IMG/VR virus record: IMGVR_UViG_3300028833_000067 | Location: 96,001-160,000 of that record | Strand: one strand, 5' to 3' | From: a virus | Lineage: Duplodnaviria > Caudoviricetes | Length of the DNA stretch: 64,000 bases | Shown here: piece by piece, positions 44,249 to 64,000 of the stretch | Numbering within the stretch: position 1 is the stretch's first letter | Layout of the letters: the number at the start of each line of letters is the position of its first letter | Position numbers and translations under genes: made by a program | Notes under the pieces: model-generated | The model's input: the letters and a program-made list of their open reading frames with translations, nothing else | The model's database searches: none | Told to the model about the DNA's origin: nothing

Positions 44249-44354
44249 TATTTGACTTTTTTCAAATTCCATGATATAATATTTACAGAAGATGAGGAAA
44301 GGAACTCACCTTCTATAAAATAATTTTTTTCATTACATAAGGAGGTAATGAGAT

Positions 44355-44728: not shown

Positions 44729-44991
44729 TGCCCTGCGGTCCGTGGCGGACAGACGGTCTCTAGGCTTAATTGGAGCCTTATATGGGGACATATAAGTGAA
44801 AACGTCGCTAAGTCGGTGAAGGCTTAACTGCTAATACCGAGCAAGGGATAAATCCTATGTGTAGAGACTTTACACGACGCATCTAGAACAGATGAAGATA
44901 AAGTCCAGACCACAATACGAAAGTAATGTGATATAGAAAACCGTGGCCTCTGAAGCAAACGAAGTTGGTTCGATTCCAACCAGGGCAGCCA
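44729..44991 (+). tRNA. amber suppressor tRNA (anticodon CUA, Gln-type acceptor); exons 44729-44761 and 44937-44991
   Basis: Acceptor TGCCCTG/CAGGGCA, G73, encoded CCA; spliced anticodon arm ACGGT-CT-CTA-AA-ACCGT; T arm GTTGG-TTCGATT-CCAAC. Confidence 0.85.
44762..44936 (+). mobile_element. group I self-splicing intron (175 nt, no ORF)
   Basis: Exon U / IGS GGAG P1, terminal G, P2 CTTATATG/CATATAAG, P3 CGTCG/CGACG, TCGGT/ACCGA, R element GTAGAGACT, S element GAAGATAAAGTCC, P8 CATCT/AGATG, GAAA-capped P9. Confidence 0.9.
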
Positions 44992-46860: not shown

Positions 46861-46933
46861 CGCACCTAGGACAAACAGTTAAGTCACGGCGCTCATAACG
46901 CTTGAGGAATCGGTGCAACTCCGATAGGTGCTA
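46861..46933 (+). tRNA. tRNA-Met(CAU), initiator-like (unpaired C1)
   Basis: Loop CT-CAT-AA; C1/U72 mismatch; T loop TGCAACT. Confidence 0.8.
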
Positions 46934-49504: not shown

Positions 49505-49622
49505 GGGAGATTCGCTAATCGGAATAGCACGCGGCTGGCCTGATACCAAAGAGATATAATAGGGGCAGGTCCTATATCAGACAATTAACCGCGCCAGAGA
49601 GGTTCAACTCCTCTATCTCCCG
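49505..49622 (+). tRNA. tRNA (probably Asn, GUU) with 47-nt insert in anticodon loop
   Basis: GGGAGAT/ATCTCCC, G73; CGCGG-CTG[insert]TTAA-CCGCG; T arm AGAGG-TTCAACT-CCTCT. Confidence 0.7.
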
Positions 49623-49717
49623 CTCGTGCTTTGATGACCAAATGTAGCTTGGCAGTAAATAAACATTAATGCAGATGTGGGGTTATGATGAAAGCCTTTA
49701 CCTTAAAAGGCTATTAT

Positions 49718-50118: not shown

Positions 50119-50635
50119 TGGTAGTATGCTAGAGCCATCGCGAGGAGAGTTATCTATAACATCCTACGTTCTACCATATGAGATGGCCACCGCCCCTGCG
50201 CTTCGGAAAGCGGTATATAAATTGGAGTAGGGCCACCCGCTATAGGGGATGGAGAAATATGTAGCTTGCGCTTTCGATGCACAGTGGCAGTAGCAAGTAA
50301 AAAATAGACCATCTGGCCGTGCAATAGAGCAGTAAAGTGTACGTTAAAGAATCGGATTCTGCTATGGGTTGTGTTTAATGAGCACGATCTTCGTATATAC
50401 TACGATCTCCAGTATGAGGAAAAACTACCGTTTGGATTGGTTGTAAGGCCATGGTCCACCCCTACGCCGGACACCGCTGAGACGTGCAGCAACCGCGCCG
50501 TAGATGAGTTTCTCTTGACTCTGGGATGTTCCCTAAATAAGAGCGGGATGAATATCCCGCAAATGGTCCCCGAGACAGTAAAGCTGGCGTTTCTAGAGCG
50601 CAAAGATAGTTCGCATACGGGGTTACATACTATCA
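50119..50635 (+). ncRNA. candidate large (~520 nt) structured RNA
   Basis: 10-bp long-range closing helix TGGTAGTATG/CATACTATCA; GC-rich; no RBS-led ORF. Confidence 0.5.
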
Positions 50636-55200: not shown

Positions 55201-55346
55201 AGGAGAATCATATAACGGTAGTATGGCGGTCTCCGGGGCGATAGTGTAAAGAACACACTAGGAAAGCAAGGACCTAGTAATTGAAGGGCAGTACTGAGGC
55301 GCTCCACCAAAAACCGTTCGTCCTGGTTCAAATCCAGGCTCTCTTG
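55201..55346 (+). tRNA. tRNA-Trp(CCA) split by a nested 75-nt tRNA-Ala-like insert (55235-55309)
   Basis: GCGGT-CTCC[insert]AAA-ACCGT, T arm CCTGG-TTCAAAT-CCAGG, G73; insert GGGGCG...CGCTCC-ACCA. Confidence 0.75.
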
Positions 55347-55350
55347 CTTA

Positions 55351-55416
55351 AAGACTCGTCAGCAACATTTTTCAAGCATCTAATTGTTAATTTGACTAGC
55401 TATAAACGAGTCTTGT
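55351..55416 (+). ncRNA. stem-CAGCA element D carrying Asn(GTT)-like anticodon arm
   Basis: AAGACTCGT/ACGAGTCTT-GT, CAGCAA, AGCA-TCTAA-TTGTTAA-TTTGA. Confidence 0.6.
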
Positions 55417-55895: not shown

Positions 55896-55966
55896 GGGGA
55901 TATAGTATAACAGTAAAACAGTAGCTTTGCAAGCTTCAGACCGGGGAGCGTCACCCCGTATCTCCA
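55896..55966 (+). tRNA. tRNA-Ala(UGC)
   Basis: G3.U70 pair, loop TT-TGC-AA; T loop AGCGTCA. Confidence 0.85.
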
Positions 55967-59460: not shown

Positions 59461-59518
59461 ATTTGACTTTTAACTAAAATTAATGTATAATTTTTATATA
59501 AGAAAAGGAGTTGATATT

Positions 59519-59986
59519 ATGCCGATTTTGTATATTCTCTGCGGACCGAGTGGATGCGGAAAAACTACCTGGGCTATGAATTTTATGAAAGAACATGATA
59601 ATATTCATTATGTATCTCGGGATGAAATTCGTTTTGAATTGGTAAAACCCGATGAGAGTTATTTTTCGCGCGAAAAAGAAGTCTTTCGGTGCTTTGCTAA
59701 TACCATTCGGCATACTCTTGTTGATGGCTTTGATTGTATTGCCGACGCCACTCACTTAAATGAATTTTCGCGTCGTAAGCTAACACAAGCAATTGATATG
59801 TATTTTAAAGATTATGAAATTGTTTATGTTAGTTTTAATGTAAGCGCAGATACATGTATTGAACATAACGCCAATCGTGAAGGCAGGGCGAATGTGCCTG
59901 AAACTGTAATTCGTAATATGTGCCGTGATTTTAGAACTCCTTCTATTGAAGAAGATGAACGTGTGAAAGAGGTAATTGAAGTATGA
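59519..59986 (+). CDS. polynucleotide kinase-like P-loop protein (AAA_33)
   Basis: GPSGCGKTT, VSRDEIR, IADATHL, R.G..VPE.VI. Confidence 0.85.
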   Translation: MPILYILCGPSGCGKTTWAMNFMKEHDNIHYVSRDEIRFELVKPDESYFSREKEVFRCFANTIRHTLVDGFDCIADATHLNEFSRRKLTQAIDMYFKDYEIVYVSFNVSADTCIEHNANREGRANVPETVIRNMCRDFRTPSIEEDERVKEVIEV

Positions 59987-60603
59987 GCGAGATTTTCTTC
60001 ACGAGTGATACTCATTTCGGGCACCAGCCCGAGTTCCTTTGGAAGCCTAGAGGTTTTTCTTCTGTAGAAGAAATGGATGAAGCCATTATTGAAAATTGGA
60101 ATAAAGTAGTAAAACAAGGAGATATAGTATATCATCTTGGAGATACTATGCTCAACGATAATGTACATGGACTTGAATGTTTCAAGCGGTTAAATGGACA
60201 GATTTTTCTTATCTACGGAAACCATGATACTAATGCTAGAAATAATTTGCTTTTTACAGATGACCGTACCATACATAAAATGCTCGGCGGCTGGTATGCT
60301 TGGCTTATTAAATATGGTAAACTTTCCATTTACATGAGCCACTATCCCACGCTTACAAGCAATTATGATCAGAAACACTTCAGCCAGCATGTACTGAGCC
60401 TTCACGGGCACACTCATCAGAAAACAAATTGGCTTGACCCGAAAAACCCCTTTCTTTATCATGTTGGCCTAGACTCCCATAATAATACGCCAGTTCATAT
60501 TGATGAAGTAATCACAGATATTCGTCAGCGTTGGGAAGAAATTGGGCGTCTGCCAGTACCAGTTCAGCCGCAAGATACTTATCCATATACTTCTATTATT
60601 TGA
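59983..60603 (+). CDS. calcineurin-like metallophosphoesterase
   Basis: SDTHFGH, HLGD, GNHD, SHYP, HGHTH. Confidence 0.9.
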   Translation: MSEIFFTSDTHFGHQPEFLWKPRGFSSVEEMDEAIIENWNKVVKQGDIVYHLGDTMLNDNVHGLECFKRLNGQIFLIYGNHDTNARNNLLFTDDRTIHKMLGGWYAWLIKYGKLSIYMSHYPTLTSNYDQKHFSQHVLSLHGHTHQKTNWLDPKNPFLYHVGLDSHNNTPVHIDEVITDIRQRWEEIGRLPVPVQPQDTYPYTSII

Positions 60604-60889
60604 CTTTATTTAAATCTATGGTATAATAATTATGTTAGAAGATAATAAGTGCTTAATTGGGTCGCCATGTGAACATTGTATAAGTAGCTGTACATTTAGA
60701 ATAAGAAAGGATAAAAATATGGAACAAGATAAACATCCATGTGATAATTGTCCACCTCCGCATATGTGCGGTCATTGTACTTTATGTGAAGAATGGGAAA
60801 AAACTCATCCTAAAAAAGAAATCAAAGAAAAATATGAATGGGAATAACCTACGGTCTTGATAAAGACTAAGATGAAAAGGAGAATGAAA

Positions 60890-62380
60890 ATGAACAAACT
60901 ACTAAAGAATCTAAAAACTGAAACCAATTATACTCATACTGAAAATGGCGCCCTTACTCATAAGTCGACCCTTAATAAGGTGCTGGATATGTTTGCTATG
61001 GGCGGTTCTATGCGGAATCGCTCGGACGATGACGTTATTAATATGTTCAAGCAGGCATACGAAGAGAATAAGACTCTCGCACTAAAGTGCCTCTTCTATA
61101 TGCGCGATATACGTGGTGGCGCAGGCGAGAGACGTTTTTTCCGCATTTGCATCAAGTGGCTCGCTAATGAGTATCCAGAAGAGATGGAGCACCTAATTCC
61201 TTTCATTAGTGAATATGGCCGCTATGATGATCTTTTTGAGCTATTTGATACTCACTGCGAAGCCGCGATGATGGGATATATCTTTCATGTTCTTAATAAG
61301 AATGAAGATCATCTTATTTATAAATGGATGCCTTCGATCAACGCATCTTCTAAAGAAAGCAAGATTCGTGGGCGTAAATTCGTGCGTGAATTTGGCATGA
61401 CAGAGCGTCAGTATCGTCAGATGCTTTCTGAAGGTCGTAAAGCTTGCCATCTGGTTGAAACTCTTATGAGCCAGAATCAGTGGGATCAGATTGCGTTTGA
61501 TCATCTGCCTTCTCGCGCAGGACTTCTTTATAAGAATGCCTTCATGCGCCGTGAAGAAACTAAAGAGCGCTATGCTGAATTTATGTCCCGCAAGGACGCT
61601 AAAGTAAATGCAAGTGTATTGAATCCTGTCGAAATCGCGCACCAGATTCTCAATACATGGCGCACTCCCTCTGCTACTGAACGTCAGGCTTGGCAGAAGT
61701 ATTGGGATAATCTAAAAGATTATTACAATGGCCGCGAAGAGCCTGGCATCGCAGTAGTTGATGTAAGTGGTAGTATGAATGGCACTCCTATGGAAGCCGC
61801 AGTTTCTATGGGCGCGTATATTGCCGAACGTGGAAAAGGCCCGTTCCAGAACCACTTTATTACCTTTAGTGCTAATCCACAGCTTGTAGAATTCGAAGGC
61901 GTGGATATTTATGACAAGTTTAAGCGCGCAATAGAAGCAGACTGGGGACAGAATACGAACCTCGAAGCAGTATTTGATATGCTGCTGGAGACTGGTCTAC
62001 GTAATCATGTGCCAGACGCTGAAATGCCTAAAACAATTTACATATTTTCAGATATGGAATTTGATGACGGCTTGACTTGCGGCGCACGTACCACTGATCG
62101 TTGGGGACGCGTTCATTCGATGAATCGCTCACAGATTGATACACTCATTGAAGCCAAAACTAAAGAGTGGATGCGGGCAGGATATACAGTACCAAGAGTA
62201 ATCTTTTGGAATCTTGACGCTCGTCAGCCTAATATTCCAGCTATTGGCCCGGGGTTCTCTTATTGCAGTGGTTTCTCTATGAGTGCGCTTGAAGGAGTAC
62301 TCTCTGGTAAAGATGGCGTCGAAATGATGCGAACTGTACTAGAAGGAGAGCGCTATGCGCCAATTTCTAGTGTTCTATAA
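60890..62380 (+). CDS. DUF2828 / TROVE(Ro60)-like protein with C-terminal vWA domain
   Basis: TENGA, RDIRGG.GERR, YGR.DDL, KWMPS, VVDVSGSM (MIDAS), IFSDMEFD, VIFWNL, SGFS. Confidence 0.8.
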   Translation: MNKLLKNLKTETNYTHTENGALTHKSTLNKVLDMFAMGGSMRNRSDDDVINMFKQAYEENKTLALKCLFYMRDIRGGAGERRFFRICIKWLANEYPEEMEHLIPFISEYGRYDDLFELFDTHCEAAMMGYIFHVLNKNEDHLIYKWMPSINASSKESKIRGRKFVREFGMTERQYRQMLSEGRKACHLVETLMSQNQWDQIAFDHLPSRAGLLYKNAFMRREETKERYAEFMSRKDAKVNASVLNPVEIAHQILNTWRTPSATERQAWQKYWDNLKDYYNGREEPGIAVVDVSGSMNGTPMEAAVSMGAYIAERGKGPFQNHFITFSANPQLVEFEGVDIYDKFKRAIEADWGQNTNLEAVFDMLLETGLRNHVPDAEMPKTIYIFSDMEFDDGLTCGARTTDRWGRVHSMNRSQIDTLIEAKTKEWMRAGYTVPRVIFWNLDARQPNIPAIGPGFSYCSGFSMSALEGVLSGKDGVEMMRTVLEGERYAPISSVL

Positions 62381-62467: not shown

Positions 62468-63367
62468 ATGTGGACAGAAGATGAAATTTTAGCTATTCCA
62501 GATAAAGGCATAGATTGCCGAGGAATAACATATCAAAGAGTCTCTTTATCTTCTCGTATGGAAGATTAGAGCGGTATTATACATGGACGTTTATTACCAT
62601 TATTTCCGATATTAAAACCTAATACTAATAAAAAAGAATGGTTGTGCTTATGCTCATGTGGTAATATAAAAGTAGTAAATAGTTCTAATCTAAAGTCTGA
62701 AAAAATTACTAGTTGTGGTTGTTTACGCTCTGAAACTACTGCCAATCATATTACTGCGATTAACCATGCTAGAAAAGAAGATTTTACTGGTAGAACTATA
62801 AAAGACTTATATGTTTTAGAACTAGATAAGGAAATGTCATTTACTCATTCTCAAAATGGGTCAATACATTATTATTGGAAGTGTCAATGTACTAATTGTA
62901 ATAATATTATGTCATTACGCGTTGATACTCTAAAAGATACCAAAAGAGTTTATTGTCGTTTTTGTAATGCCACCAAGTCAGTAGGCGAAATATTAATTAG
63001 AAATCTATTATTACAGAATAATATTCCTTTTACAGAAGAACAAACATTTTCCAATTGTATTTTTCCAGACACTAAAGCTAAAGCTAAATTTGATTTTTAT
63101 GTCAATAATCAATATTTAATAGAGTATGATGGAACTCAACATTTTAGAGCCTCAAGTATGTTTCCTGATATTAGTAAAATTCAAGAACATGATTATATAA
63201 AGAATTTATGGTGCTATCAGAATAATATACCACTAATTAGGATTCCGTATAGTCATGTAGAAAATATAAAAATAGAAGACTTACGGCTTGAGACAACTCA
63301 GTATAGAATGGAGTATGAAAATGGAAGATTTATTATCAAAAGTAAAGCAACATCACTTTATTGTTAA
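62468..63367 (+). CDS. putative homing endonuclease, paralog of 4631..5677 (one TAG)
   Basis: WLCLCSCGN..SCGC; KFDFYV...LIEYDG.QHF..LIRIPY. Confidence 0.75.
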
Positions 63368-64000
63368 AAAACATTTACCCGAAACCAGCCCCGTAATGAC
63401 GGTATTAATAGGTTCGAACAATTATGAATTAGATACTCCCGAAAGTGATGTAGATACTTTTACATTTGTCTTTCCTAGTTTTAAGGATATGGCGTTCGCG
63501 CGCGATCCTATCAGTGGAGAAGTTGAGGTAGCCGATGGAAAATGTATGTATAAAGATATTCGTCTTGCTCTAAATCTGCTCAAGAAGACTTCTCCTAATA
63601 GTCTTGAATGCTTTGCTAGTAAGCATCGTTATTATGAGCCAAAATATGCTAGTATTTTAACAAAGTATTTAGATAATGAAAATACACTAAATAAAATGGT
63701 TCATTGCAACTATGAACATATGCTTTACGCAATGGCGGGAATGGCTCATTAGCTTACTAAACGCAATATGTCCGCAGGAAAACGTTATTCACACGCGCTA
63801 CGGCTTTATAGTATGAAAGATAACTTCTTAAATTTTACAGATACTTTTCAGCTGCTTAAACTCTTACCGCGCGATTATCAAGAGGCACTTCATGCAAAGC
63901 GTGATACTATGGAGTCGCATGATGCATACTACAATGATGGATGCGTAAGTATTGCAAATATTCTAGACGATTGCCGTGATAAATTTAAAAAGACTTCTAT
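63321..64000 (+). CDS. Pol-beta-superfamily nucleotidyltransferase (RlaP-like), partial; reads through TAG 63750
   Basis: LIGSNNYELD..ESDVDT GS-DxD motif; frame continues past TAG to the window edge. Confidence 0.7.

Follow-up and report, generated by a model that had tools for sequence, protein, structure and literature searches.

A tRNA-Ala-like insert in the anticodon of a phage tRNA-Trp gene, and a possible route for its removal by tRNA end processing and ligation

A stop-codon-recoded rumen phage carries a gene for tryptophan transfer RNA (tRNA), tRNA-Trp(CCA), that is interrupted inside its anticodon by an RNA of 75 nucleotides (nt) resembling a degenerate tRNA-Ala. The gene occupies positions 55201-55346 of the window, the whole 64,000-nt stretch analyzed here, which corresponds to bases 96001-160000 of the 176,887-base-pair (bp) IMG/VR phage record IMGVR_UViG_3300028833_000067 (Duplodnaviria; Caudoviricetes; 98% complete, 36% G+C). 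Exact removal of the insert restores a canonical tRNA, the outer gene is under constraint, and copies of the same insert interrupt four tRNA species in related phages. We describe the boundaries, the fold, and the spread of this insert, as well as a boundary rule that it shares with other short inserts in the clade. We then weigh a route of removal in which the tRNA end-processing enzymes of the host would cut out the insert and a phage RNA ligase would close the loop. This interpretation is anatomically compelling, mechanistically unproven, and partly supported by the data at hand.

The interrupted gene and the shape of its insert

The boundaries of the insert are established independently through alleles of relatives that are intact. 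Relatives, given here as contigs with handles such as L001, were retrieved via the neighboring DUF2828/vWA protein, and they keep the gene order tRNA-Ile(GAT)-Trp-tRNA-Leu(CAA). At the same place, L002 and L003 carry an uninterrupted tRNA-Trp(CCA), as do the more diverged L004, L005, and L008, and L001 carries the interrupted form. L001 and L002 are identical around the junction apart from the 75-nt block, the 5' exon (55201-55234) aligns with the intact tRNA-Trp of L002, L004, L005, and L008, and in an alignment of 7 sequences the insert stands out as one clean block of 75 gap columns. The insert is bounded by GGGGCG and CGCTCC-A-CCA, and the 3' exon begins with AAAACCG. An earlier reading of the DNA, made from the sequence only, had claimed that exact removal restores a CT-CCA-AA anticodon loop. 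This is borne out: 55235-55309 is the sole pair of boundaries that gives this 7-nt loop, and the spliced junction would read GGCGGTCTCC followed directly by AAAACCGTTCG. ARAGORN calls no gene at 55201-55346 in default mode; after in-silico removal of the insert, it calls a 72-nt tRNA-Trp(CCA).

The outer tRNA-Trp is maintained as a tRNA. Across 3 interrupted and 4 intact orthologs, 95.9% of the cells in the outer cloverleaf are paired and 15 of its 21 pairs have changed on both sides, values reached by none of 500 shuffles. The sequence-only reading had named decay of the outer stems in homologs among the signs that would speak against it. No such decay is seen: each of the 3 interrupted copies retains 20 of 21 pairs, compared with 20 to 21 in the 4 intact orthologs. 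Interrupted copies pair like intact ones and most pairs have changed on both sides: the outer tRNA-Trp is under constraint.

The inner RNA is built from a 6-bp acceptor stem and 3 further arms (Table 1). The terminal GGGGCG and CGCTCC-A-CCA with their G3.U70 pair, together with the GTGT/ACAC and CTAGG/CCTAG arms, had all been picked out from the letters, and each of them holds. In an alignment of 6 insert copies, 93% of the cells of the four-arm fold are paired, 7 pairs have changed on both sides, and the covariation is reached by 0 of 500 shuffles. Two of the 3 arms covary: CTAGG/CCTAG becomes CTTGG/CCAAG or CTTGG/CTAAG in other copies, and all pairs of the T-like stem form in L025 (TCAAG/CTTGA) and L024 (TCTGG/CCAGA). 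The GTGT arm is paired in every copy. The acceptor and D arms were pre-set by the search pattern in 5 of the 6 copies, which partly accounts for their invariance. Folding energy, with z = -1.65 for the 75-nt insert and z = -0.11 for the entire precursor, is weak and is not relied on as evidence; the minihelix score of the window insert, taken alone, is reached by 3.7% of shuffles.

The kinship of the insert is with alanine tRNAs. Aligned with the window's own tRNA-Ala(TGC) at 55896-55966, it scores 8.5 against -6.7 +/- 4.2 for shuffles, a value reached by 1 of 1000, and it is closest to the tRNA-Ala(TGC) genes of the clade. The alanine identity set, namely G3.U70, A73, and the CCA end, is present. 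The inner RNA departs from a true tRNA in its 6-bp acceptor stem, its 5-nt D loop, its 10-nt loop, and its T-like loop, GGCAGTA. ARAGORN does not call it a tRNA, and Rfam, searched with the insert alone or within 4 kb, returns no family at E <= 10, the tRNA model and ribozymes included. The sole match of the Rfam tRNA model (16.9 bits, 55235-55346) is a hybrid that joins the inner 5' part to the outer 3' part. The insert is a non-working tRNA. It is best read as derived by degeneration from a phage tRNA-Ala: a cloverleaf-like outline survives, as do CCA, A73, and an acceptor stem with the G3.U70 pair, and whatever decoding requires has probably been lost.

This genome holds no paralogs of the 75-nt insert. 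The motif GGCAGTA occurs 4 times in the tRNA cluster, and the other 3 contexts have no insert-like fold. A role of the conserved 10-nt loop as an antisense target was considered and rejected, with matches at chance level.

One insert in several tRNA species, and a common boundary rule

A pattern built from the ends of the insert alone was used to find further copies in metagenome contigs. It led to a third Trp gene (L027), a tRNA-Lys(TTT) interrupted at junction 35/36 (L026), a tRNA-Ile(TAT) interrupted at 34/35 (L025), and an amber-suppressor tRNA(CUA) interrupted at 35/36 (L024). The anticodon arm of the suppressor derives from that of Trp by a single base change, and this insert copy lies on a contig with in-frame TAG codons. 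Exact removal yields a canonical tRNA in all 6 copies: 3 of tRNA-Trp and 1 each of tRNA-Lys, tRNA-Ile(TAT), and the suppressor tRNA(CUA). In 419 kb of DNA from related phages, a covariance model of the insert copies gives 7 matches, each of them nested in the anticodon loop of an intact tRNA, and no free-standing copy. A distant member (30 bits) interrupts another tRNA-Lys at L016:18515-18584, where pairs 5-68 and 6-67 have changed on both sides and G3.U70, A73, and CCA are kept.

The insert is more conserved than the genes that it interrupts. Between the window and L023, 73 of 75 insert positions are identical, compared with 27 of 34 and 30 of 37 in the exons; between L023 and L027, the inserts are identical at 75 of 75 positions and the 5' exons at 71%. 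This difference in conservation, together with the presence of the insert in 4 tRNA species, indicates lateral mobility. In its behavior, the insert is like a mobile element that would be tolerated solely in the presence of an activity sealing anticodon loops.

The family belongs to a wider set. When introns are permitted, ARAGORN reports about two dozen tRNA genes of the relatives as interrupted; we curated their boundaries against intact homologs. Among 17 distinct short inserts of 43 to 117 nt from related phages, about 15 begin at base 1 of an acceptor-like stem of 6 to 7 bp, with zero offset from the 5' junction, and in about 15 this stem is stacked directly on a hairpin with a 5-bp stem and a 7-nt loop. 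For most, the minihelix score is reached by 0 of 300 shuffles. Insertion sites range from 32/33 to 35/36 and lie mostly within the anticodon triplet. The 3' tails are NCCA (10 inserts), AC (2), AA (2), and A (1), with the 3' junction falling right after NCCA in most inserts. Since the inserts start at acceptor base 1 and keep the stacked hairpin, the conserved part is what end-processing enzymes read; such a minihelix is the minimal substrate of RNase P and RNase Z, established for RNase P with the McClain/Altman model substrates.

The inserts form a series with a complete tRNA(CUA) at one end, bare minihelices of acceptor and T arm of 43 to 50 nt at the other, and degenerate cloverleaves, the window insert among them, in between. 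At the complete end, L016:1718-1794 is a tRNA(CUA) with a canonical T loop and a CCA end, lying within a tRNA-Ile(TAT) gene (L016:1683-1834). A weaker tRNA with a CUA anticodon is the insert of a tRNA-Gln(TTG) at L001:4750-4904. As both inserts are full tRNAs with a CUA anticodon, each amounts to an amber-suppressor-like tRNA hidden in the anticodon of another tRNA.

A 7-nt loop that is foreign to tRNAs recurs in these inserts. GGCAGTA, GGCAGGT, GGCAGCA, or AGCAGCA replaces the T loop in 4 unrelated insert families (window 55287-55293 and 49564-49570, L011, L018, and L016), and we suggest that this GGCAG-type loop may be a recognition site for some factor. One of these cases is a minihelix in the window's tRNA-Asn(GTT); the orthologous insert of L021 (tRNA gene L021:11773-11892) has a canonical TTCAACT loop, and the bodies of the 2 outer tRNA-Asn genes are very different.

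A larger kind of insert, 175 nt in length, interrupts the window's tRNA(CUA), the only amber suppressor that ARAGORN finds in the genome. Like a group I intron, it is preceded by U and ends in G, but it has no group I match in Rfam at E <= 10. An intact homolog of this suppressor lies at L021:1354-1441, and the relatives' inserts at the same kind of site measure 174 to 327 nt. The open reading frames (ORFs) of the phage roughly double in length when TAG is read through, from which we conclude that the phage is TAG-recoded. Many of its genes are read through TAG, and its only suppressor tRNA is interrupted; the phage must therefore depend on some form of tRNA splicing.

Table 1. Positions in the window of the interrupted tRNA genes, the parts of the tRNA-Trp insert, and nearby genes for RNA repair
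Feature	Positions	Strand	Remarks
5' exon of tRNA-Trp(CCA)	55201..55234	+	Acceptor 5' strand, D arm, anticodon-stem 5' strand, C32 U33 C34 C35; ends GGTCTCC
75-nt tRNA-Ala-like insert (intron)	55235..55309	+	Between C35 and A36; R1 model 100 bits
Inner acceptor stem, 5' strand GGGGCG	55235..55240	+	Pairs with 55300-55305 (CGCTCC); includes G3.U70
Inner D-like arm GTGT/ACAC	55244..55256	+	5-nt loop AAAGA, without G18 G19; 100% paired, one G-C to G-U change
Inner anticodon-like arm CTAGG/CCTAG	55258..55277	+	10-nt loop AAAGCAAGGA; 4/5 pairs change on both sides among copies
Inner T-like arm	55282..55298	+	3/5 pairs in window copy; 7-nt loop GGCAGTA instead of TTCRANY
Discriminator A and CCA	55306..55309	+	End coincides with 3' junction
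3' exon of tRNA-Trp	55310..55346	+	A36 A37 A38, anticodon-stem 3' strand, T arm, acceptor 3' strand, discriminator G73
tRNA-Asn(GTT) with 47-nt minihelix insert	49505..49623	+	Insert 49538-49584 between G34 and T35; tail AA, loop GGCAGGT
tRNA(CUA) with larger insert	44729..44991	+	Insert 44762-44936; found by ARAGORN
P-loop kinase (AAA_33)	59483..59986	+	Resembles kinase domain of bacterial Pnkp and PSTK
Calcineurin-like phosphoesterase (Metallophos_2)	59983..60603	+
DUF2828/DUF7788 vWA protein	60857..62380	+	Part of conserved RNA-repair island
RlaP-family nucleotidyltransferase (RNA repair pathway)	63288..63998	+	Runs past window end

Candidate routes of removal

We favor excision of the insert by the host nucleases that trim tRNA ends, followed by ligation, a reading that we judge to be evenly poised between right and wrong. 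In this scheme, the transcript of the cluster would fold as a cloverleaf inside a cloverleaf. Host RNase P would cut 5' of the inner acceptor stem, leaving an outer 5' half with a 3'-OH, and a host 3' endonuclease would cut directly after the inner CCA, leaving an outer 3' half with a 5'-phosphate; in inserts that lack CCA, the 3' cut would fall after the discriminator (+0/1). The outer acceptor, D, and anticodon stems would hold both halves together, and an ATP-dependent RNA ligase, for which a phage enzyme of the Rnl5 type is the candidate, would seal the nick in the anticodon loop to give a normal tRNA-Trp(CCA). The 3' cut could be made by an enzyme of the RNase Z kind that cleaves after an encoded CCA, or by RNase E. 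Both T. maritima RNase Z and E. coli RNase E have been documented to cut endonucleolytically just behind an encoded CCA (reviewed in PMC7479834).

The sequence-only reading had already raised this combination of maturation nucleases and a ligase. The anatomy agrees with it, in the acceptor stems that start at base 1 and in the NCCA ends, as does the gene content of the phage, in which a ligase is present and EndA and RtcB are not. From these data we infer excision as such, the enzymes responsible, and the nature of the ends.

The genes in question form an RNA-repair island that lies directly 3' of the tRNA cluster and is kept in all relatives sampled. Its members within the window are listed in Table 1. 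About 2.7 kb past the window end, the island continues over genome positions 162694-165400 with an Rnl5-type ATP RNA ligase at 162694-163911 (Naegleria NgrRnl, 5cot, E 1e-30; TIGR02306; N-terminal PHA02142 OB fold), followed by a second metallophosphoesterase. Thus a kinase, an end-healing phosphoesterase, and an ATP RNA ligase are encoded together, as in the heal-and-seal system of the T4 type. The sequence-only reading had pointed to RtcB or an Rnl enzyme elsewhere in the genome as possible partners: RtcB (PF01139) is absent from this 98%-complete phage genome, as is EndA (PF01974), and the RNA ligase that is present is of the Rnl5 type. Also absent from the phage are Rnl1 (PF09511), TROVE, and reverse transcriptase, as well as RNase P RNA, an RNase Z-like beta-lactamase fold, and a CCA-adding enzyme.

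Several observations weigh against the nuclease-and-ligase route. On the substrate side, the GGCAGTA loop departs from the T-loop consensus with which RNase P and RNase Z normally make contact, the T-like arm of the window copy is weak, and the Rfam tRNA model gives the insert no score even at E <= 10. CCA is an anti-determinant for most RNase Z enzymes, and a cut after CCA is not the RNase Z default; moreover, the variety of 3' tails (NCCA, AC, AA, and A) means that no single fixed-distance rule can describe the 3' cut. The window copy of tRNA-Trp itself has one pairing defect, an A7.C66 mismatch in the acceptor stem. On the enzyme side, the Rnl5-type ligase is consistent with the route rather than diagnostic of it, because the family is common in unrelated phages. 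Characterized Rnl5 ligases (NgrRnl and DraRnl) are known for sealing nicks in duplexes, not in single-stranded loops. A splint RNA that would turn the loop nick into a duplex nick was sought and rejected: the phage has no complement of at least 9 nt to the spliced Trp anticodon loop. Finally, the kinase and the phosphoesterases rather point to a chemistry of 5'-OH and 2',3'-cyclic-phosphate ends, and they would be superfluous for 3'-OH and 5'-phosphate ends.

This last point leads to an alternative in which T4 Pnkp/Rnl1 tRNA repair would have been turned into a splicing pathway. An endoribonuclease, either from the phage or a host enzyme resembling anticodon nucleases, would recognize the tRNA-shaped insert and cut both junctions, the resulting 2',3'-cyclic-phosphate and 5'-OH ends would be healed by the kinase and phosphoesterase, and Rnl5 would seal them. 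The gene content speaks for it: a Pnkp-like kinase, 2 metallophosphoesterases, RlaP, and a ligase are clustered by the tRNA genes and kept in the clade, and the healing enzymes would be needless for the products of RNase P and RNase Z. The replacement of the T loop by GGCAGYA, GGCAGGT, or AGCAGCA in 4 unrelated insert families hints at a dedicated recognition factor, and many phage ORFs have no assigned function. However, no candidate endonuclease was found in the phage, from which EndA is absent, and the healing enzymes are equally explained as a defense against host anticodon nucleases. The strict start at acceptor base 1 and the NCCA ends are the natural ends left by tRNA-processing enzymes, and we consider this alternative unlikely.

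The insert might instead never be removed. A mobile tRNA-derived element would then have killed the tRNA-Trp gene, and RNase P and 3' nucleases would at most free the inner RNA, its sole product. Recent lateral spread would give just the pattern seen between the window and L023, with an insert more conserved than its host gene (73/75 vs. 27/34 and 30/37); in addition, close relatives carry intact alleles of the same gene, the window copy has its A7.C66 mismatch, and the host cell supplies tRNA-Trp in any case. Against this stand the outer genes themselves. Once the insert is taken out, the outer tRNA around each of the 7 copies found by the insert-only search folds perfectly; the boundaries are all exact to the base, and no decayed host tRNA is seen. 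The interrupted Trp genes have diverged by about 20% yet keep 20 of 21 pairs through compensatory changes, and one copy interrupts the suppressor tRNA(CUA) of a contig that has TAG codons in frame. An inactivating insertion, which the sequence-only reading had kept as its own alternative, is thus disfavored by the intact outer stems, and we regard a permanently retained insert as improbable. Least credible of all, to the point of being barely worth entertaining, is that the insert removes itself as a small ribozyme, by self-cleavage or self-splicing. The insert sequence is highly conserved, and small ribozymes of the theta/HDV-like kind process tRNA ends in recoded gut phages; however, the insert matches no Rfam family at E <= 10, ribozymes included, and the top half of a tRNA is all that it has in common with the other inserts under the same boundary rule, one of which is an ordinary tRNA. 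Its ends and its length do not suit a group I intron either, as set out below.

Relation to known systems and significance

Self-splicing group I introns also interrupt bacterial-type tRNAs in the anticodon loop; in bacteria they occur in the tRNAs for Leu-UAA, fMet, Ile-CAU, and Arg-CCU, and they are mobile and precisely excised. They measure about 200 nt or more, are built around a P3-P9 core, follow a U that ends the 5' exon (forming G.U in P1), and finish with a terminal G. The window insert, by contrast, is far smaller at 75 nt, has no such core and no match to RF00028 or any other Rfam family, follows a C, and ends in A, and hence lacks both the U and the omega-G.

The bulge-helix-bulge (BHB) introns of archaea and eukaryotes, which are cut by EndA/Sen and joined by RtcB or Trl1, resemble the insert in being short and in occurring at non-canonical positions, and the route proposed here would share with them a protein-dependent endonuclease and ligase. 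They are marked by two 3-nt bulges set 4 bp apart by a helix between exon and intron, whereas both junctions of the insert lie at the base of one 6-bp helix internal to the intron, and its ACCA tail cannot pair with the exon bases CUCC. The phage encodes neither EndA nor RtcB, and its host is presumably bacterial.

Closer in gene content is the T4 system, in which Pnkp and Rnl1 mend the breaks made by PrrC. There, as here, a phage kinase/phosphatase and an ATP RNA ligase are encoded with phage tRNAs, and here too the substrate would be a tRNA nicked in its anticodon loop. The 2 differ in the ligase, Rnl1 in T4 and an Rnl5-type enzyme here (like NgrRnl and DraRnl, with an N-terminal OB fold), and in the break, which is made by a host toxin in T4 and would be programmed by the insert here. 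The mascRNA of MALAT1 and the tRNA punctuation of mitochondrial transcripts offer a further parallel: a tRNA-shaped module is embedded in a longer RNA, its ends are set by the tRNA-processing enzymes RNase P and RNase Z, and its flanks carry a 3'-OH and a 5'-phosphate, as we propose for the insert. In those cases, the flanks are not rejoined, whereas here ligation would be required.

The phage belongs to a smaller (177 kb) lineage of stop-codon-recoded rumen phages that is associated with ROOL RNA. Its tRNA cluster spans 44.7-57.7 kb of the window, and several further features lie in or near such clusters. At window positions 44285-44351 and 50366-50460, Rfam finds cow-rumen-4 RNA above its gathering score (57.6 bits) and a cow-rumen-3 match just under its gathering score (79.2 vs. 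86.7); in the relatives, ROOL RNA (298-346 bits) and drum RNA lie within the tRNA cluster (L013:12597-13181; L016:14693-15269). Two tRNAs fall below the default threshold of ARAGORN: a tRNA-Met(CAT)-like gene with an acceptor mismatch at 46861-46933, and the tRNA-Ala(TGC) at 55896-55966, which has G3.U70 and non-canonical D and T loops (T loop AGCGTCA). Directly 3' of tRNA-Trp, at 55351-55414, is a small element with the closing helix AGACTCGT/ACGAGTCT and CAGCAA just within the helix. Both L023 and L027 keep it 3' of their Trp genes, and the suppressor of L024 is followed by a similar motif. The sequence-only reading had listed 5 copies of this type behind tRNAs; the element may serve in 3' processing or as punctuation. 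The tRNA-Trp locus has no DNA match among GenBank phages. In exact-pattern searches of IMG/VR, an 18-mer of the 5' exon has no match and a 24-mer of the insert matches the L001 contig alone. An assembly artefact was dismissed, as the same insert recurs in independent assemblies from several metagenomes.

The nearest precedents are introns of the Lak and jumbo phages. Devoto and colleagues (2019, Nat Microbiol, PMC6784885) reported "enigmatic introns" in the tRNAs of Lak megaphages, where alleles with and without the intron define the excision point, the introns are unusually conserved, and that of a Thr(TGT) tRNA "itself may encode a tRNA." A 2026 survey (PMC13037316) found tRNA introns in 77% of recoded jumbo phages and noted that they "could encode another tRNA." No mechanism for tRNA-like introns is given in PMC6784885 or PMC13037316, and a full-text literature search found none. 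The present case agrees with them in the features by which they were described: an insert in the anticodon loop of a tRNA gene from a TAG-recoded gut or rumen phage, with boundaries defined by alleles with and without it and with clean removal; a predicted tRNA-like shape and a conservation greater than that of its surroundings; and a reassigned stop codon accompanied by a suppressor tRNA. It differs in coming from another, smaller lineage, in having tRNA-Trp as its host gene, and in carrying a degenerate inner tRNA-Ala that tRNA finders refuse. Neither a boundary rule nor a mechanism is given in the Lak and jumbo-phage papers, which also present no evidence that an insert has spread from one tRNA species to another.

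Introns of tRNAs that are themselves tRNA-like are therefore already known as a kind. To this kind, the locus adds a degenerate tRNA-Ala-type member in the tRNA-Trp of a smaller, ROOL-associated rumen phage lineage, a single insert family in 4 tRNA species that include a suppressor, covariation of the inner fold, and a boundary rule with statistics. In the proposal given below, such introns would be tRNA fossils that came into cleaved anticodon loops, possibly through RNA-level ligation, and this origin would account for their extent from the mature +1 base to CCA. The released alanine-type mini-RNA, with G3.U70, A73, and CCA, could then itself be charged and functional.

The splicing of tRNAs has two established forms, one that relies on self-splicing group I introns and one, found in archaea and eukaryotes, that uses EndA and a ligase. 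We tentatively propose, at a confidence that stops short of an even chance, that phages of bacteria use a third, with neither a self-splicing intron nor EndA. A tRNA-mimic intron would be cut by the RNase P and the 3' tRNA endonuclease of the cell, and a repair-type ligase of the phage would close the loop; the introns would be mobile tRNA fossils, kept only where a loop-sealing ligase is at hand. For tests, the locus offers a compact substrate of 146 nt, with a natural allele lacking the intron as its control, and the genome itself encodes a candidate ligase; the occurrence of the insert in 4 tRNA species supplies a natural set of variants for defining what the machinery recognizes. If the proposal is true, removal of tRNA-mimic introns by RNase P-type end processing and ligation would be a third way of tRNA splicing, and the tRNA-repair enzymes of phages, so far seen only as counter-defense, would be tied to routine gene expression. 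In stop-codon-recoded phages, such a pathway could gate when phage tRNAs, suppressors included, become available.

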